This document shows, one piece after another, positions 46,735 through 57,700 of a DNA stretch of 64,000 nucleotides. A program made the position numbers and the translations under genes. Origin of the DNA: Thermoproteota archaeon (GTDB taxonomy: Archaea > Korarchaeota > Korarchaeia > Korarchaeales > Korarchaeaceae); NCBI GenBank assembly GCA_027491735.1, contig JAOZGP010000004.1, forward strand, positions 19,523-83,522, in the 5' to 3' direction. Every line of letters starts with the position of its first letter. Positions within the stretch are counted from its first letter, which is position 1. Under the pieces are notes generated by a model. It made no database searches. It saw only the letters and a program-made list of their open reading frames with translations, and had not been told where the DNA came from.

Positions 46735-47913
46735 TTACGTATAATTATTTCGTTTTTCAACGAAAGAAGGAATTGAAGTCCCGTTTTTCTTCTGGGAAAT
46801 TTTTAAATTTTTACTTAAAATCGATGATTTAGCAATTTTATATCTCTTTATAAGCTCCAAACACTCAGGAGTTGGGGTGCATCCTCCCCTGTCTGAACCA
46901 CCTTTCCTGGACATGAATAGGTTAATCCCCAAAATCTTTTCAATAGATCTTACTCTCTTGTATATCGAGGCTGGTGATGTGTTAAGAGCTCTAGCAAGTC
47001 TGCTAAAGCTTCCTAGATCAGCTAATGCCGATAAAATTTCCAGATCATCCTCGTATATGCGTCTGCCGTCCTTGGTCACGAGGACCAAGGAGGCTGAGAA
47101 GGAGTACTTCGTTGATCGACTTATCTTGCTGCAGTTCAGCCGCACGATGCCTGCTATCTCGAGGGGTGAGTAGAGCATGTTGAGGGTTCCCTCCACAGGG
47201 CATTTCCCTACATATCCCGCCGAGTCCAGGAACACCATGCCGCAGTTCAACTTACAGTAGGGGCCGTCCAGGACATATATTGGAAAATCTCTTCTGAAAG
47301 TGACCCGAACCATGTAGACGTCCATGAACTTTCTGAATGGCTCAGAGACCTCAAACCCCTGTCTCTCCATGATGGCCACAGCGCTAGTGGAGCAGACCGT
47401 TGGAGGACAGAATATGGGCGGGGAGATCCACATCTGAACCCCCTTCTCCCTGATTAGATCTATACAGGTGAGAAGTTCCCTCTCATTTGTGTTTTGAGTG
47501 ATAAACAGGGCTACTTTTACGTTTGCTCCTCTGGAGAGAAGGTATCTCATCATCTTCCTTGCCCCGGAGATGTCCGAGTGTGTGTAAGAAAAGAGAAAAA
47601 TCTCATCCGGTATGAGCAGGCTTCTCCATCCTTCCTCCTCGGAGCCGGTTGAGGATGGAGTGAATACCCTGAGAGGGAGTCTTCTCTCCTTAACAGACAT
47701 CATAAGATCCGTAACACCTGGATGGAGGAGCGGGTCCGGACATATGAAGCAAACCTCCGGTCTGTACCCGGAGCCTATCATGGCGTCCAACACGAGCTCG
47801 AGCTTATCTTTCTTGAGGTATGTGCGCTCTCCAGACTTGGTTTCTCTCCACGGGCACTGGGAGCAGGACGCATCGCACCCCCTCACAGGTCGAACTATGA
47901 GTACGGGCTTCAT
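46735..47913 (-). CDS. corR: CorR-like regulator: radical-SAM-like FeS domain plus C-terminal LysR/ModE-type HTH
   Basis: CDASCSQC motif; C-terminal GSFSRLARALNTS..YKRVRSIEKILG..KGG..RGG; sits directly upstream of cooF. Confidence 0.7.
   Translation of the reverse strand: MKPVLIVRPVRGCDASCSQCPWRETKSGERTYLKKDKLELVLDAMIGSGYRPEVCFICPDPLLHPGVTDLMMSVKERRLPLRVFTPSSTGSEEEGWRSLLIPDEIFLFSYTHSDISGARKMMRYLLSRGANVKVALFITQNTNERELLTCIDLIREKGVQMWISPPIFCPPTVCSTSAVAIMERQGFEVSEPFRKFMDVYMVRVTFRRDFPIYVLDGPYCKLNCGMVFLDSAGYVGKCPVEGTLNMLYSPLEIAGIVRLNCSKISRSTKYSFSASLVLVTKDGRRIYEDDLEILSALADLGSFSRLARALNTSPASIYKRVRSIEKILGINLFMSRKGGSDRGGCTPTPECLELIKRYKIAKSSILSKNLKISQKKNGTSIPSFVEKRNNYT
46748..46765. promoter_or_regulatory. 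inverted repeat at the BRE/TATA of the cooF promoter
   Basis: tttcgtt-tttc-aacgaaa immediately upstream of TAATTATA on the minus strand. Confidence 0.5.
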
Positions 47914-49580: not shown

Positions 49581-51302
49581 TCATGTTGAGGCTCCGCTGG
49601 AGGCTTTCTTGAACTCCGAATACCTCCTCAACCCGTCCACAGCAACTATTATGCCAAGTATGAACAGGACTAGACCGACAACGCCGAACACTCCATTGAG
49701 AGCGAGGGCTACTCCCTTGTAAGCAGGAGCGGCGAGAGGACCTTTTGCCAAGGGTTTTCCTAGGAAGATTGCCCTGAAGAACTTAGCTGATTCGAATATC
49801 AGAGCTGCCTCACATGTTATTATCATGAAGATTGCTGGCCAGAATGTGTATCCCGTCGGCTTCTTCTGCTTGGCCAAGTAGACAGTCACGAGCGTCAAGG
49901 CTAATCCGGCCAAGAGCTGATTGGATCCTCCAAAGAGGAGCCACAGATTTATCCAGGCGCCTGTGTAAGCCAATATATCTCCTATCACAAGCCCTATTAT
50001 GGCTCCTACGTACTTATTGCTTAGAAGAGGTCTTCCTCCTACCATATCGGCCCATACAAGCCAGAAGAACCTCACCGCTAGGAAACCTATGGTGAGGGCG
50101 TAGAGCTCGAGCCACATAGCAAAGAAGGCCTTGATCCAAGGGGCTGCAGCCGCTCCTCCGGTATAAGGAGCTACAAGCCTCACGGCCCCCTCCACAAGGC
50201 AGTTCCACTTAACTCCTCCAAGTGTTTTGATGTCTGCAGGAGAGAGAACCATGTAGGCTGCCAGAGAGGCAAGAGCGAGGAGGCCTTCCGTCAGCATGGA
50301 TCCACCACCGACTGGAAGAGCGTCTGTCTCCACATCAAGCTGCGGAGCTGATCCCGAGGTGCTGACCAAGCTGTGCCATCCGGAGATTGCTCCACATGCT
50401 ATCGAGACGGTTAGAATGGGCCATATCGGTCCAGGAGTCCAGAAGTCATTTTTAATGCCAAGCCACCCTCCCCATCCTATCTGCTGTATTGGAACATTCG
50501 TGGCTGGGGACACGAGGGCCCCGACTATGAGCAGCAATATTCCGAATATGGCAGGGTAGGATGCCACGTAGACGATCGGTTGCGTGACGTACATCAGGGA
50601 GATCGTGGCCCCTATGAACATCAGCACCGACGTGAAGACTATCCATACCATGAGGTTCGAGTTGGATATCGGGAATAGCTTTCCAAGAACTATACCAGCT
50701 ATCACTATTATGAGTCCGATTACTGTTGAGGTTACCACGCCAGTCCTGGCCTTGTAGAGGAGGGCACCGCTCACTATTCCGCCTATGTAGAGGAATATCA
50801 TTGCCAGAACGGACTCGGGGTATATTTTGAAGAAGAGGCTACATAACACAGCAAAGACGGCTATTATAAGTATTAGGTAGAAGAACAGGAAGCCTAGAAG
50901 GGATTTCCTTGCTCTAGGACTTATCAGCTCATAAGTCAGTGGCCCCATGGACTTCCCTTCATTCCTCACGGAGAGGAACAGGGAGGAGTAATCATGGATC
51001 CACCCTATGAAGAAGTTTCCGACCAAGATCCATATGAGGGCTGGAATCCATCCGTAAAACAGGGCTATGAATGGGCCGAGGATGGGACCAAGGCCTGCTA
51101 TCCCCTTGAACTGGAATCCATAGAGGACGTACTTGCTCACAGGGAAGAAGGTTATCCCGTCCATGTACATGTGAGCCGGAGTTGCCCTCTTTGGATCGGG
51201 TTCCCAGACGTTCCTATCATACCATTTGGCGTAGAGGTAGTATGCTATGAGGTAGACCACTATCCCGAGCGCCACAAACCAGATGGGATACATCCTCGAC
51301 AT
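49581..51302 (-). CDS. cstA: carbon starvation protein A family transporter
   Basis: TPAH..DG..P, IAGLGPILGP, GWIPALIW, HDY, IACGAISGWHSL and LFGGSNQLLA motifs. Confidence 0.95.
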   Translation of the reverse strand: MSRMYPIWFVALGIVVYLIAYYLYAKWYDRNVWEPDPKRATPAHMYMDGITFFPVSKYVLYGFQFKGIAGLGPILGPFIALFYGWIPALIWILVGNFFIGWIHDYSSLFLSVRNEGKSMGPLTYELISPRARKSLLGFLFFYLILIIAVFAVLCSLFFKIYPESVLAMIFLYIGGIVSGALLYKARTGVVTSTVIGLIIVIAGIVLGKLFPISNSNLMVWIVFTSVLMFIGATISLMYVTQPIVYVASYPAIFGILLLIVGALVSPATNVPIQQIGWGGWLGIKNDFWTPGPIWPILTVSIACGAISGWHSLVSTSGSAPQLDVETDALPVGGGSMLTEGLLALASLAAYMVLSPADIKTLGGVKWNCLVEGAVRLVAPYTGGAAAAPWIKAFFAMWLELYALTIGFLAVRFFWLVWADMVGGRPLLSNKYVGAIIGLVIGDILAYTGAWINLWLLFGGSNQLLAGLALTLVTVYLAKQKKPTGYTFWPAIFMIITCEAALIFESAKFFRAIFLGKPLAKGPLAAPAYKGVALALNGVFGVVGLVLFILGIIVAVDGLRRYSEFKKASSGAST

Positions 51303-51378
51303 CCTCCTCTTTTCGAGTCGTTGGGTAACGCGACATGAACAGTTATAAACTTTTTTAAAGAGTTGACAGGAAATTGGC

Positions 51379-51411
51379 GATAAGACGGATAAAAGTCGAT
51401 AATTTCAATAA
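51379..51411. promoter_or_regulatory. phased GATAA direct repeats in the divergent cstA promoter
   Basis: GATAA at 51379, 51388 and 51398, and AATAA at 51407 (9/10/9-bp period). Confidence 0.5.
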
Positions 51412-51413
51412 AG

Positions 51414-52019
51414 GTGCTTATGATGGAAGCGGGTTTCGTCGTGGTTCTAGCCATCACCACCCTGATGGTGTTGTGGTTCCTGGCCGGGAGGAGGATGAAC
51501 TTCAAAAGGCAGAGTCATCTCTGGAGGGAGGTTGCTCCGAAAATAAAGAGATATTCGAGGAAGGTGAACTTCAGGGGATTGGGATCCGGAGGTTTTCAGG
51601 TGAGCTTTCGAGGAGGAGGTCCCCTTTCAAGGGTGGAGCTGTTTTTCGTCCTCTTGGATAGGGAGAATCTTCCCCACCTCCTGTTTCAAAAGGCTGTGGG
51701 GAGAGGAGATGAGGTCTATCTAAGGGCCTCCTTCACAAGAAGCCCTGACTTCAGGCTGAGGATATCCGAGAGAGAGGAGAGCATGCCAAAAGTGAACTGG
51801 ATAGATCTTGGAGAGGAGCTCAAGGTGTTCTCTGAGGATCCCTCTAGGGCCGCCAAGATCCTCCTCAATGACAGGTTCAGAGATCTATTCAGTAAGATCA
51901 AGATAAGGGGTTTGTCGATAGCTCCAGAGGAGCCACATCTCATCATGAGATGTGATGCTGATCCGGAGAGCCTGGAGAACATCCTTAGAATGGCGGAGTT
52001 CCTGGCATCACATGTCTAA
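51414..52019 (+). CDS. single-TM membrane-anchored protein, possibly CCDC47/DUF1682-like
   Basis: N-terminal TM followed by GRRMN..W and VELFFVLLDRENL..D.V pattern. Confidence 0.6.
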   Translation: MLMMEAGFVVVLAITTLMVLWFLAGRRMNFKRQSHLWREVAPKIKRYSRKVNFRGLGSGGFQVSFRGGGPLSRVELFFVLLDRENLPHLLFQKAVGRGDEVYLRASFTRSPDFRLRISEREESMPKVNWIDLGEELKVFSEDPSRAAKILLNDRFRDLFSKIKIRGLSIAPEEPHLIMRCDADPESLENILRMAEFLASHV

Positions 52020-52585
52020 TGACATGAGAGCTCCTGAAGGAGATCCTTCAGGAACAGCACTTCATCTTTGTTCCTGCCTAATATTTTTATCTCAAGTTTC
52101 CTGCCTGTGACGTCACAGAAGAAACATAGAATGACTTCCCAGAGAAGGCCCCTCTTGAAGAGACCCTCCCTAACTCTCCTCAAGACGTAACCGCAGTCAT
52201 GCCCATTAACCCTCATCACTCCGTGATCCTCCGATTTCCTTGTCATCTTCTCCACCCACCTCCAAGGATCAAAACCTCTCCTAATCACGGGCTCTGATGC
52301 GCTGACCTTTAGCAGAACCTCTCCTCCATCATCTGAGATCACTCCAACGGTTATATGACCATTAGTGGCCCAGGTTATTCCTCCTGACTCCTTGGACGTC
52401 TCTACCTCAACCATTCTAAGAGGAAAAACTCTCCAACCCTCCGGAACGCTTATCGACACAAACCTAACAGTTCCTAGGATTATGTTCTTGGCGTCTAGGT
52501 CAACGTGTGCTCTCACGGGCATGCAGAAGATGGCTGAAGCTAAAAACATTCCACGAGGATTATGGCTTTGATTTTTTGTACCCAT
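52016..52585 (-). CDS. hypothetical protein ending in CH (PsbP/Mog1-like pattern)
   Basis: ISVPEGW, VNGH, FFCDVTGR and C-terminal LSCH. Confidence 0.65.
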   Translation of the reverse strand: MGTKNQSHNPRGMFLASAIFCMPVRAHVDLDAKNIILGTVRFVSISVPEGWRVFPLRMVEVETSKESGGITWATNGHITVGVISDDGGEVLLKVSASEPVIRRGFDPWRWVEKMTRKSEDHGVMRVNGHDCGYVLRRVREGLFKRGLLWEVILCFFCDVTGRKLEIKILGRNKDEVLFLKDLLQELSCH

Positions 52586-52627: not shown

Positions 52628-53272
52628 TCAAAGACCTCTGCTGAAGAAATCCCTGACATAGTTCTCCAGATCCCTCGTGCTGTGTCCTGGGCATATCCTC
52701 CCAGCAAACTTCTTGATGATGTACACTAGGTCCTCCACGAGTTCCTCCTTTTCCCATTGAGACTTCTTACCCAAGACCGTCTCTACCTTAACACCGTATC
52801 CCTTGATGAGCTTGTTCAAGTAATTAAAGCAGAAGCGGGAGATCTCCTCGGTATCAAACAAGACCACGACATCAACGCCTCCATTGACGATCATGTCCAG
52901 AAGCTTCATGAGACCTTTTCTCTCCTCTCCCTCGAATGAGGACATTTCCTTGATCACCTTGACCACTCTGTAGTTCTTCCTATGACAGTATCTCCTCAGG
53001 ATCTCTACTCTTCTCTCAAGCTCATCCCTCAATCCAAGAAATCTGGACCTCACGTATATGACCGCTCTCCTCCCTTCCTCCCTCGCCTCCAGAATCCTCT
53101 TAACCTCCTCATTAGAGATTCTGTAGTGTCCTCCTCTGGTCCTCATGGCATTCACATAGCCAGATCTTATCCAGCATCTGATTGTCGATGGATGAAGATT
53201 TAACATCTCAGCGAGCTCGCTCACCTTTAGATATTTCTTATCGATTTTATCGCTTTTGCTCATAAATCTCAC
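52628..53272 (-). CDS. IS607 TnpA-like protein (MerR-type HTH plus serine recombinase fold) with altered catalytic motif
   Basis: KVSELAEML..TIRCW..RTRGGHYR HTH; AVIYVRSRF in place of YARVSS; RKGLMKLL, RFCFNYL and EELVEDL. Confidence 0.85.
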   Translation of the reverse strand: MRFMSKSDKIDKKYLKVSELAEMLNLHPSTIRCWIRSGYVNAMRTRGGHYRISNEEVKRILEAREEGRRAVIYVRSRFLGLRDELERRVEILRRYCHRKNYRVVKVIKEMSSFEGEERKGLMKLLDMIVNGGVDVVVLFDTEEISRFCFNYLNKLIKGYGVKVETVLGKKSQWEKEELVEDLVYIIKKFAGRICPGHSTRDLENYVRDFFSRGL

Positions 53273-53329
53273 ATCTCTAGAGAAGAATCCTTATTAATTT
53301 ATATATTGTGATGTATCCGAGGTGATTCT

Positions 53330-53638
53330 GTGATATTCAGGAGGAAGAAGAAGGAAGAGAATAAGGCCGGGAAAAAAGAAGGAGCGACTAGTGAGGCTAA
53401 GGAGGCAGTTAAGGGTCTTATCTATGGAATGTCAGCCCACGCGGTGACAAGACAGATGCTGAAGACCAGGATGTACCTTGAGCACCTCTTCATGCTCATA
53501 ACCCTGGGCGACATGCTTGGGATACCGATACTCCCCCCCTACTACTCGCTAAAGCTCCTTCCGTACGCTGTTCCAAACATAAAGACCTGGAAGAGGAGCC
53601 TTTTCAAGGAGAGGGACATAACTGACATGTTCTACTGA
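53330..53638 (+). CDS. small ArsA/CstA-associated protein (cory-CC-star-like), paralog 1
   Basis: FMLITLGDMLGIPILPPYYSLKLLPY..W motif. Confidence 0.75.
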   Translation: MIFRRKKKEENKAGKKEGATSEAKEAVKGLIYGMSAHAVTRQMLKTRMYLEHLFMLITLGDMLGIPILPPYYSLKLLPYAVPNIKTWKRSLFKERDITDMFY

Positions 53639-53647
53639 GGTGCCGAT

Positions 53648-54649
53648 ATGAAGTCCCTTAAGGAGTTCCTGGACGAGAGGCCTGACATGAAGGTGATAAT
53701 CAACGCTGGGAAGGGAGGGCTTGGGAAGACCACATCGAGTGCAGCAATGTCCTACTGGTTTGCCAAACATGGGAAGAGACCTCTCTGCTTCAGCACAGAT
53801 CCGCAAGCATCGCTAAGTGATATATTTGAGAGTGATCTGTTCGGAAAGGGAATTCAAGAGATAGAGAAGAACTTATTTGTCGTCGAGATAGACGCAGATA
53901 GGAGAATTCAAGAGTTCCAGGAGGAGATCAGGAATAAGATAAAGGAAATGTATGGACTTGACGAAATACCTGAAGAGATAGACGAATACATAACCACCTC
54001 TGCCTATGAGCCAGCGATGCATGAATCAGCGACCTACGACGCTATGGCTGAGCTTTTGGCTGAGGGAAAGTACAATCCGTACATCTTCGACATGCCACCC
54101 TTCGGACATGGTGTGAGGATGATAAGCATGGCCAAGATTCTGGACGCCTGGATAGATAAGATGGAAGAGACCAGGAGAAAAGCCGCTCAATATGCTGAGG
54201 CTGCGGCCTCACTGAGAGGAGCTGCAGCGAAGACGGAAGAGGAGGTCCTGAAGGAGCTCAGGTCCATAAGGAGGAGGTTGGACTTCTTCAGTGAGATCCT
54301 ATCAAATCCTGAATACTCTGCCTTCTTCATGGTGATAATACCGGAGAAGATGGCGATATTGGACACCGAGAGGGCTTTAGGAATGTTTAAAAGGCTAGGA
54401 ATAGAGATGGCTGGCGTGATAGTCAATCAGGTGTATCCAAGGGAGCTCCTGAAGAGGCCTGATCTAAGTGACTTCCTGAGGAAGAGGATAGAGATGCAGC
54501 AGAAGTACCTCAAGGAGATAAAGGAGAAATTTGGTGAGTATGTGAGGGCTATAGTTCCGATGTTCGATAGGGAGCCGAAGGGGATGGAGATGCTGGCTAA
54601 GGTAGCTCATCACCTGTTCGAGGAGCCAGGTTTGGAGGTGTTAGAATGA
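53648..54649 (+). CDS. ArsA/Get3(TRC40)-family ATPase 1
   Basis: GKGGLGKTT, STDPQASL, FDMPPFGH, PE and VNQV motifs. Confidence 0.92.
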   Translation: MKSLKEFLDERPDMKVIINAGKGGLGKTTSSAAMSYWFAKHGKRPLCFSTDPQASLSDIFESDLFGKGIQEIEKNLFVVEIDADRRIQEFQEEIRNKIKEMYGLDEIPEEIDEYITTSAYEPAMHESATYDAMAELLAEGKYNPYIFDMPPFGHGVRMISMAKILDAWIDKMEETRRKAAQYAEAAASLRGAAAKTEEEVLKELRSIRRRLDFFSEILSNPEYSAFFMVIIPEKMAILDTERALGMFKRLGIEMAGVIVNQVYPRELLKRPDLSDFLRKRIEMQQKYLKEIKEKFGEYVRAIVPMFDREPKGMEMLAKVAHHLFEEPGLEVLE

Positions 54650-55695
54650 GCGAGGAGAGCATGATTCTCGTGGAGAAGCCCGTTGGATTTAGGGATTATG
54701 TGACGACCCACGAGTCCTTGAAGTTCTTCTTCACCGGCGGAAAAGGAGGGGTCGGAAAGACCGTGGCCGCTGCAGGAATAGCAGCCTACTTTGCCAAGGA
54801 GGGAAAGAAGGTTCTGTTGGCCTCCCTTAACCCAGTGCACTCCCTCTCCAGCTTGTTTAGTCAGGATCTCTCTGGAGGAGAGATAAAACTGGTGGAGGGG
54901 ATAGAAAATCTGGACGCAATTGAGGTCGACATAAGCGACAAGGTGGCGAGTTACAAGAGACAGCTAGCTGATAGGCTCTCCTGGTTCCTGAAGTGGGCAG
55001 ACATACCACTGAAAGCATCTGAATTTATAGATATAGCTGCTACAAACCCCGCTTTTGAGGAAAGCGCTATGTTCGATGCCACTGTGGACATATTACTCCA
55101 GCAAGGAGAGAACTATGACAAAATAGTTTTTGACTGCGCTGCTGTGGCAAATGCGGTTAGACTTCTTGGGCTCAACAAGATCTACGGGCTCTGGCTTCAG
55201 AGGATGATAAAAAGCAGAGAAGAGGCTCTTTCGCTAAGGGTAAAGCTTTCCTTCAGGAAAGATAAGGCCATGGAGGAGATAAAGAAGGATCCTTTGATGA
55301 AGGACCTGCTTGGGCTCAAGGAGAGGACCGATAGGGCAAGCGAGGTGCTCGGAGATCCTAGCAGGACGGCCTTCTTCTTCGTGACCCTGCCACTAGCTCT
55401 TCCAATATCAGTCGTTGAGAGGTTCATAAACATGGTCAAGGGCTTCAACATAGCGATAGGAGGGGTTGTTGTCAATGGGGTCATAAGAAGGGAGCTCGCT
55501 GAGAGGGGTACTGAATATCTGAGGAACAAGTACGAGGAGCAGAAGAGATACCTTGAGATGATAGAGGATAAGATGGGCCCACTTGTCAGAGCCGTTATTC
55601 CTCTGTATGAGACCGAGATAGTTGGAACTGAGATGATCCTCAGAATAGCGGATGATCTGTCGACATGGACCCCCGAGAAAGGACTGTTCCTTTGA
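54646..55695 (+). CDS. ArsA/Get3-family ATPase 2 with degenerate switch motifs
   Basis: GKGGVGKT is retained; SLNPVHSL replaces STDPAHSL and FDCAAVAN replaces FDTAPTGH. Confidence 0.9.
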   Translation: MSEESMILVEKPVGFRDYVTTHESLKFFFTGGKGGVGKTVAAAGIAAYFAKEGKKVLLASLNPVHSLSSLFSQDLSGGEIKLVEGIENLDAIEVDISDKVASYKRQLADRLSWFLKWADIPLKASEFIDIAATNPAFEESAMFDATVDILLQQGENYDKIVFDCAAVANAVRLLGLNKIYGLWLQRMIKSREEALSLRVKLSFRKDKAMEEIKKDPLMKDLLGLKERTDRASEVLGDPSRTAFFFVTLPLALPISVVERFINMVKGFNIAIGGVVVNGVIRRELAERGTEYLRNKYEEQKRYLEMIEDKMGPLVRAVIPLYETEIVGTEMILRIADDLSTWTPEKGLFL

Positions 55696-55705
55696 GGAGA
55701 TTGCT

Positions 55706-55957
55706 TTGGGGTTAAAGGAGCATCTAAAGGATTTCTTTTTTGGTTTTGCTGTCTTACCTCATCTAAGAACTGTTGTAAAGATGCGCTTTGAGGAGGACAT
55801 GTTCATGATGACCTTGACCATAGGGGACATGATCGGTCTGCCCATAATGCCCCCCGTTTACAAGCTCTCCCTGCTCCCCTACTGGTTGCCTCTTATAAGG
55901 AGATGGAAGAAAGAGCTGCTTGGTGAGAAGGGCGCTCTTGAGAAGATAGAGGAATAG
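55706..55957 (+). CDS. small ArsA/CstA-associated protein, paralog 2
   Basis: TTG start after GAGGAG; MMTLTIGDMIGLPIMPPVYKLSLLPY..W aligns with paralog 1. Confidence 0.75.
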   Translation: MGLKEHLKDFFFGFAVLPHLRTVVKMRFEEDMFMMTLTIGDMIGLPIMPPVYKLSLLPYWLPLIRRWKKELLGEKGALEKIEE

Positions 55958-57185: not shown

Positions 57186-57246
57186 TCCCAATCAGACTCT
57201 TTTGAGAACTAACCATCCCAACCTCAAGATCAAAGTGGAGTGTTGG

Positions 57247-57365
57247 GTGACCTTCCCCTCTAAAGACGGGGGCTTCCACCAGAAGCCTTACGGAGGTTGG
57301 GGAGTGTGCATCACAAAGCTGCACACTCCTTCTGGCTGGGTCACTACAGCCCCTGACCGCAGCGT
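57247..57365 (-). ncRNA. putative TnpB omega-RNA (reRNA) scaffold
   Basis: Perfect 10-bp stem 57301-57310/57320-57329 nested in CCAGAAG/CTTCTGG, followed by the right-end hairpin. Confidence 0.6.
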
Positions 57366-57700
57366 ATAGCCCATGCTCGTTTTAGTATGTTTTTAGCTCC
57401 GTTGATATCGGTGTTGACAGCATACCCACAGTCCTTCAGATGAAAACTCCTTGTGAAGGTCTCTCTGTGTCCATTGAGCCACATCTCGAACACTGCTTCG
57501 ACGTGTTGTGTCAGGAACCTCCATCGCCTTGTATTTGATGTATTCCTTCAGGCGGTAGAAGGCATCGAGTTAACCCTCCTGTTCACTTCCCTCCCTTGCC
57601 GTTGTCTCTGACGCCGTCTAAGTTTCCCATAGCGATTATTGCATTGTGCCTCCCAGCTTCATCAACGACTTCCTTTGCTATCCTGCTTTCTTAGCGACAT
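57247..57700 (-). mobile_element. tnpB: decayed IS200/IS605-family (TnpB) element: 3' tnpB pseudogene plus right end
   Basis: Frameshifted fragments RIAKEVVDEA..IAMGNL, FYRLKEYIKYKA, TSKQCSRCG and DCGYAVNTDINGAKNI; right end GAAGCCCCCGTCTTTAGAGGGGAAGGTCAC. Confidence 0.9.

Follow-up and report, generated by a model that had tools for sequence, protein, structure and literature searches.

Genes and features of the locus

The window, by which we mean the whole stretch of 64,000 nucleotides that was analysed, contains a CstA-CstX-ArsA locus, in which a gene of the IS607 transposase family lies head to head with the cstX and arsA genes (Table 1). Loci of the CstA-CstX-(CstY)-ArsA type have been described as a gene set by gene context (PMC2963123, in excerpt), and like them the present locus contains CstA, two CstX-like genes, two single-domain ArsA ATPases and a CstY-sized membrane-anchored protein. 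The excerpted text of that work names no regulator, whereas here a TnpA derivative without the catalytic serine adjoins cstX1. In the 12 related genomes that served as controls, the CstA-CstX-ArsA locus works without a tnpA derivative and a regulator of this kind is absent from it, and no conserved regulator gene was seen by eye at nine loci of genomes listed by ORF.

The ORF of the derivative is separated by 42 bp from the ORF at 52016-52585 and by 57 bp (66 bp from the ATG) from the divergent gene at 53330, which agrees with the flanks of about 40–60 bp in the original prediction. A divergent promoter shared with the ArsA operon had also been proposed; the head-to-head layout and the TATA-like boxes would accord with such a putative shared promoter. 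Elsewhere in the window, the gene at 46735-47913 (- strand) joins a radical-SAM-like N-terminus to a ModE/LysR-type HTH and lies directly upstream of CO dehydrogenase genes.

Table 1. Features of the CstA-CstX-ArsA locus, in positions of the window
Feature	Position	Strand	Basis
cstA, carbon-starvation transporter family	49581..51302	-	PF02554, E 3e-96
Back-to-back TATA-like boxes of cstA (-) and the cstY-like gene (+)	51342..51361		pattern matches only
Array B, candidate operator: four 9-bp repeats, spacing 9, 10, 9, between cstA and the cstY-like gene	51378..51414	+	
CstY-like 201-aa protein, one N-terminal hydrophobic segment	51414..52019	+	matches CstY by description
Conserved hypothetical protein of the locus, homology from about residue 25	52016..52585	-	no Pfam/NCBIfam match
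Ser-less IS607 TnpA derivative, 211 aa	52628..53263	-	NCBIfam/Pfam, alignment, model pLDDT 88, fold match 6dgc
Former serine-recombinase domain with the first half of helix E, the predicted dimer module	52703..53062	-	Pfam Resolvase, residues 71-190
Glu-Glu in place of Asp-Arg of DRLxR, only in the G000 lineage	52844..52849	-	alignment
Arg codon (AGA) in the catalytic Ser column	53042..53044	-	alignment
N-terminal winged HTH (HTH_17, BldC/RacA-like), best-conserved part	53081..53233	-	Pfam, residues 14-64
Array A, candidate operator: two good 9-bp repeats and a degenerate third, within the first codons	53235..53261	-	
Back-to-back TATA-like boxes of the tnpA derivative (-) and the cstX1-arsA operon (+)	53290..53305		pattern matches only
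cstX-like small protein 1 (cstX1)	53330..53638	+	cory-CC-star model, under cut-off
ArsA/Get3-family ATPase 1	53648..54649	+	Pfam/NCBIfam
ArsA/Get3-family ATPase 2	54646..55695	+	Pfam/NCBIfam
cstX-like small protein 2 (cstX2)	55652..55957	+	NCBIfam search

An IS607 transposase derivative

The ORF at 52628-53263 (- strand) is uninterrupted and encodes 211 aa from the ATG at 53263, or 214 aa from the GTG at 53272. The ATG appears the likelier start, because it agrees with the 211-aa form given in the database and is preceded by a TATA-like box at a distance of 27 nt; residues are numbered here in that form. The product passes the NCBIfam model of IS607 transposases (128 bits; cut-off 110) and contains an N-terminal HTH_17 domain (MerR-like) followed by a Resolvase domain according to Pfam, and thus the intact full-length ORF with an N-terminal HTH is found again as first described. 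The gene descends from an IS607 tnpA. For comparison within the IS607 family, we used IS607, IS1535, ISC1926 and ISC1904 together with PDB entries 6dgc, 6dgb, 3ilx, 3lhf and 3lhk (PMC6188088, PMC4058570).

The alignment to ISC1926 TnpA (6dgc) is ungapped, and in it YVRSRF lies over YARVSS and EEISRF over DRLTRF, so that the change from YARVSS to YVRSRF in the original prediction puts an Arg in the Ser column. We take the first Ser of YARVSS to be the nucleophile, as in the resolvase family. The predicted model of the protein (pLDDT 88) superposes on 6dgc with a TM-score of 0.84 and an rmsd of 2.4, and has a split helix E as in ISC1926 TnpA. The nearest solved relatives of the catalytic domain are ISC1926 TnpA, MJ0014 and ISC1904 TnpA, and that of the N-terminus is BldC. 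When the predicted model was compared with known structures, the HTH came closest to DNA-bound BldC and RacA; the BldC model gives the derivative 37.5 bits, under its cut-off of 77.

A homodimer was predicted with a score of 0.70 versus 0.00 for the best control, a result to be read as likeness only, because similar dimers are already solved and 6dgc, for example, may explain the pass. The predicted interface consists of helices B/D and the helix E bundle. The mark applied to such predictions is reached by 20 of 30 solved pairs and by 1 of 23 single chains; here contact agreement between runs was 100% and pLDDT was at least 78.

Orthologues, loss of the serine and selection

In order to collect relatives, 43 genomes of the phylum were searched with a three-row alignment, and 16 matched at E 1e-20. 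Close orthologues were found only in the source genome (G000), in G003 of the same genus and in G011 of another genus. An identical copy of the G003 locus DNA in the genome-collection scan was counted once, and two metagenome loci were added, namely L045, which lacks the 5' end, and L046, which lacks the 3' end. A single-sequence search of a large protein set matched only the protein itself; the orthologues came from the genome searches and the alignment search.

In an alignment of 284 proteins, 273 rows have letters in the catalytic motif, comprising 8 rows of the clade to which the derivative belongs and 265 others. The catalytic column holds Ser in 249 of the 265 non-clade rows and in none of the 8 clade rows, which have Arg, Cys or Gln there and read YVRSRF, YVRKRF, YARACF or YARVQS. 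These 8 rows, including P0165, P0166 and P0167 from the alignment search, represent four lineages and not eight events. In a tree of 70 rows (6 of the clade and 64 others from the 284), the clade is recovered as one group with support of 100/99 on a long stem, in which G011 branches first, as the host genera predict, and the sister group is not resolved. The clade has a single origin, and every member is without the catalytic Ser.

Besides the Ser, residues Q78, G110, G145 and R194, which are kept in 88–92% of other TnpAs, are changed in every clade row, and the HTH and the helix E174-L175-x-x-D178-L179 are conserved in the clade. The change from DRLxRF to EEISRF, which had been named as a second lesion, is present in G000 but does not extend over the clade: the motif is DEIFP in P0167 and intact in the G003 and G011 lineages, whose orthologues retain DRLxRF.

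Clade proteins hold 4–8 Cys, versus a median of 2 in other TnpAs. In the homodimer model, residue 145 faces its mate over the predicted twofold axis, and the clade-specific Cys/His at 145, 191 and 194 fall in the predicted dimer interface. It is speculation at present that the Cys/His of the dead domain might sense metal or redox state.

Rows lacking the catalytic Ser are also seen outside the clade (16 of 265; e.g. P0003, P0019, P0026 and P0189, and further P0195, P0215, P0216, P0250 and others), and five of the 16 read YARVGS. P0021 is a protein of 117 aa with an N-terminus identical to that of P0167 and an unrelated tail, probably an assembly chimera. We take this tail to resemble the end of the ATP synthase gamma subunit.

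Between G003 and L045, dN/dS by the Nei-Gojobori method is 0.072 (dS 0.97), while the same pair gives 0.009, 0.105 and 0.105 for three neighbour genes. The HTH, where purifying selection had been a point to check, is the lowest part of the gene at 0.018, and the catalytic domain stands at 0.073. Over 86 codons, 10 changes separate G011 from L046, all of them synonymous. Identity between genomes is 68–72% in the HTH and 47–53% in the catalytic domain, and synonymous sites are saturated between genera. The clade-wide loss of the Ser, the low dN/dS and the saturation between genera together indicate that selection continued long after the Ser was lost.

Immobility and position in the locus

Copy number and synteny with cstA/arsA, both of which the original prediction had singled out for checking, came out in favour of a fixed gene. 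No second DNA copy of the gene and its flanks was found in the genome, and the only other IS607 tnpA there is a frameshifted relic with 34% identity. This relic (L002:1113-2047 on contig C8) keeps YARVSS and lies among ribosomal-protein genes, and the short ORF after its tnpA resembles the start of a tnpB. As to synteny, the cstX1 junction is fixed in two genera: the gene is head to head with cstX1-arsA1 in 4 of the 4 loci with upstream DNA (G000, G003, G011 and L046), and the rest of the locus occurs in three different gene orders across these loci. Gene order at the CstA locus varies in most genomes examined.

With one TnpB probe, tnpB was found downstream at none of the 4 orthologue loci with downstream DNA, versus 13 of 16 canonical loci, consistent with the earlier remark that no tnpB is adjacent. 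A weak match of the probe in L045 sits 3.5 kb off, inside a polymerase gene. The tnpB relic at 57246-57690 (- strand) was considered as a partner and ruled out, since it is upstream of the gene and multi-copy. It is a decayed tnpB-type relic with a terminal hairpin, and pieces of it recur on other contigs with 98–99% and 70–84% identity, which makes it a recently spread non-autonomous element.

The genome G025 has the gene order of G011 without the gene between cstX2 and cstX1, i.e. an empty site; the G011 order used for this comparison was joined from two contig ends. Among 9 genomes of two genera, cstA and the gene were both found in 3 and neither was found in 5 (72–97% complete). In G017 (72% complete) there is only a piece of cstA, with no arsA1 orthologue.

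Repeat arrays at the predicted divergent promoters

A 9-bp direct repeat, CGA(T/G)AAAA(T/G), recurs in G000, G003 and G011 at each of the two divergent promoter regions, and both regions that the original prediction had named for binding assays contain an array of it. The distance between the core of array A and the start of cstX1 is 76–78 nt in all 4 loci (77 nt in G000), and that between array B and the start of cstA is 57–89 nt. Array A does not code for protein in G011 and L046, where it precedes an in-frame stop, and therefore it is conserved as DNA and not as protein. Both arrays are oriented towards the cstY-like gene and the tnpA derivative respectively, with cstA and cstX1 behind them, and a TATA-like match is found upstream on the array strand in 6 of 7 regions, 16–51 nt before the first repeat (none in L046). 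IS607 ends would have GG termini and subterminal repeats on both sides of the element; here the 5' side carries a repeat array, and none was found just 3' of the gene.

The repeat units were picked by eye, and the matrix for scanning was made from 11 units of G003 and G011 only. When this matrix is applied to three units in a row, the G000 sites come second and third among about 2.7 million positions. The first rank, a third strong array on contig C27, was rejected as chance, since it lies inside cmr2 of a CRISPR locus; a top match there means that the motif arises by chance in A-rich coding DNA. In a scan with two units, array A ranks 1 and array B is outside the top 20, and among the non-coding or 5' positions of G000 the two arrays rank 1 and 2. 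The next non-coding or 5' matches score 20.4 (start of cmr2) and then at most 17.5, and thus no further regulon member was found in G000, the genome scanned. Judged by its translations, the CRISPR locus itself (L079, about 62900-78400 of contig C27) combines cas genes of type I-A with those of type III-B (Cmr) in a single block, and a small nucleotidyltransferase pair lies inside it.

Training on the gene-side arrays recovers the cstA-side array with 7 genome positions as high, and the reverse training with 6. Since the arrays predict each other across promoters, shared descent of one promoter is no explanation. In the leave-one-genome-out comparison against 2000 dinucleotide shuffles, the number of shuffles scoring as high was 0, 0, 0, 27, 1 and 0 for the six regions, although only three genomes have both promoter regions and these regions are not independent, because G000 and G003 belong to one genus and their intergenic DNA is alignable throughout. 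Where the gene is present, the scores of the six regions are 23.4, 23.3, 25.8, 13.0, 24.0 and 20.1. Among the 20 matching regions of the 12 genomes that have the locus but not the gene, 19 score at most 11.1 and one, in G038, scores 17.4. The weak array is that at the 5' end of the gene in G003 (13.0; 27 of 2000 shuffles), which this control exceeds.

Simpler patterns were less informative. A fixed 15-letter pattern is not discriminating in G003 (16 matches vs 20 in the control), and in G011 two of its three matches are the two arrays, from whose sites the pattern was built. In the output of a generic repeat finder, the arrays amount to no more than a single inverted pair of 16 nt out of 33. 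By eye, a single TCGACATA-type word was noticed upstream of cstA in G027, G022 and G030, in which the gene is absent (L064:8890-9020, L075:6090-6320 and L068:6880-7425). This TCGACATA-type word may represent an earlier operator, or the sequence from which array B grew.

Proposed mechanism and alternative explanations

From the above, the gene is likely a dead IS607 transposase turned into a transcription regulator of the CstA-CstX-ArsA locus, which would act via the two candidate operators. The original prediction of a catalytically dead transposase retained as a regulator of the locus thus seems the likeliest reading, with the loss of the Ser, the synteny, the selection and the arrays all pointing to it. 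An IS607 element would have inserted before cstX1 in the ancestor of the two genera, and would then have lost tnpB and its mobility. The winged HTH would read the 9-bp repeats, and the dead catalytic domain would be kept for dimerisation and for the cooperativity of helix E. On each array, several dimers could assemble head-to-tail in the manner of IS1535 TnpA at the left end of its element, where that protein binds cooperatively, nucleating on four 9-bp direct repeats and spreading over about 70 bp (PMC6188088, in excerpt).

The arrays lie behind a TATA-like box and over the predicted start regions, and repression by the derivative of its own gene (autorepression) and of the cstY-like gene is therefore predicted. 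For the divergent cstA and cstX-arsA genes, the arrays are upstream of the TATA-like box, and control of either sign can be imagined: a filament spreading over 70 bp would cover the cstA and cstX-arsA promoters and repress them, and a short filament could activate. A bolder form, in which a whole serine transposase was domesticated, with repeats rebuilt at a host promoter, a dead dimer that senses a signal and a paired-end loop between the cstA and cstX-arsA promoters, appears rather unlikely.

The derivative may instead be an immobilised IS607 remnant in slow decay that regulates, at most, its own gene and has no part in the control of the transporter genes, the arrays being old element ends. 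IS607 ends hold short direct repeats in inverted relation (PMC6188088, in excerpt), and the arrays of G000 do face each other, 1.85 kb apart; moreover, G000 and P0167 sit on long branches and have lost more active-site residues. However, the full-length sequences of the clade have no stop or frameshift though synonymous sites saturate, dN/dS is as low as in the housekeeping neighbours, and the genes between the arrays are ancestral, being present in genomes without the tnpA derivative. The arrays of G003 point in the same direction and are separated by 3.8 kb, the gene lies outside them, and their position tracks the promoters, not each other. We therefore regard a remnant as improbable.

The same differences in orientation and distance between G000 and G003 count against an architectural role, in which dimers at one array would capture the other, as the paired-end complex of IS1535 does, looping 1.9–3.8 kb and switching both promoter pairs together. 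Retention of the C-terminal domain is already accounted for by cooperativity at a single array, and such a role is scarcely to be expected.

A dominant-negative TnpA might also guard the host, by binding incoming IS607 elements or by poisoning transposase dimers, its place in this locus being accidental. IS607 elements are common in this family, G003 and G011 are without another IS607 tnpA match and G000 has only the relic, and the dimer surface is predicted to be retained, all of which would fit. Nevertheless, scores for the repeat (two units) do not exceed 10.2 in the left-end regions at 14 other IS607 loci, and array B and the joint loss of the gene and the locus would be left unexplained, which makes a guard very unlikely.

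It is extremely unlikely that the repeats act at the RNA level, with the protein controlling translation or termination at transcript 5' ends: both arrays are sense-strand at the 5' end of a transcript (that of the tnpA derivative and that of the cstY-like gene), array B overlapping the cstY-like ribosome-binding site and array A, in G000 and G003, covering the first codons of the derivative, but the HTH resembles DNA-bound BldC and RacA most and a spacing of 9–10 bp fits helical phasing on DNA. An active recombinase, whose nucleophile would be a neighbouring Ser or a Cys and which would invert or excise a segment of the locus, is just as hard to credit, since the retention of Arg72 in all clade rows and of DRLxR in two lineages, and the inversion relative to cstA of the block tnpA-cstX1-arsA1-arsA2-cstX2 between G000 (52628-55957) and G003 (L031:9667-12975), are set against the lack of a common residue near the Ser column, the absence of a Ser there in P0167, and inversion breakpoints that lie at gene 3' ends, away from the arrays. 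The neighbouring Ser, whose use as nucleophile had been named as a possible objection, is not conserved (the flanking columns hold S/K/A/V and F/S), and the protein is probably catalytically dead as first suggested. IS607 with its predicted Ser replaced (Ser-to-Gly) showed no transposition (PMC6188088, in excerpt).

Relation to known systems

Domestication of transposases into transcription factors is well known in eukaryotes. The gene described here is probably a new instance of the domestication of a transposon gene into a regulator, as judged from its sequence. In a full-text literature search, with subscription papers mostly outside its scope, we found no published regulator derived from a Ser-less IS607 TnpA, and no published domestication into a regulator for a serine transposase or in archaea. 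A review of recruited mobile genes does not mention IS607 in its excerpted text (PMC8987985), and the excerpts of PMC9956272 and PMC12787533 contain nothing on Ser-less IS607 TnpA regulators.

If the bolder form of domestication given above were true, the derivative would be the first regulator assigned to a locus of the CstA-CstX-ArsA type, and an example of a path by which IS607 TnpA has repeatedly become a gene regulator. The case would also give an opening into the regulation and the substrate of the CstA-CstX-ArsA system, which PMC2963123 (in excerpt) treats by gene context only. It is readily testable, since there are two candidate operators, a small clade and a relative with an empty site. 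The automatic label 'IS607 family transposase' conceals non-mobile host genes.

Like IS607-family TnpAs, the protein combines a winged HTH with a serine-recombinase fold, a split helix E, a predicted dimer and 9-bp direct repeats. Unlike them, it has no catalytic Ser and no tnpB, is present in a single copy and at a fixed locus over two genera, its repeats are at host promoters, and the turn of helix E (GMRS in ISC1926) is replaced.

Streptomyces BldC (PDB 6amk, 6ama) has an HTH of the same class and regulates transcription by multimerising cooperatively, head-to-tail, on direct repeats (PMC5859096, in excerpt). Unlike BldC, which is a 68-aa HTH-only protein with a large regulon, the derivative has a dead recombinase domain of 140 aa and two candidate sites in one locus.

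The nearest published parallel, from the excerpted account, is TldR, a nuclease-dead TnpB that acts as a repressor in bacteria (PMC10705468). In both cases, a gene of the IS200/IS605/IS607 group has lost catalysis, and TldR is a transcription factor. TldR is TnpB-derived and RNA-guided, whereas the present protein is TnpA-derived and would read DNA by its HTH.
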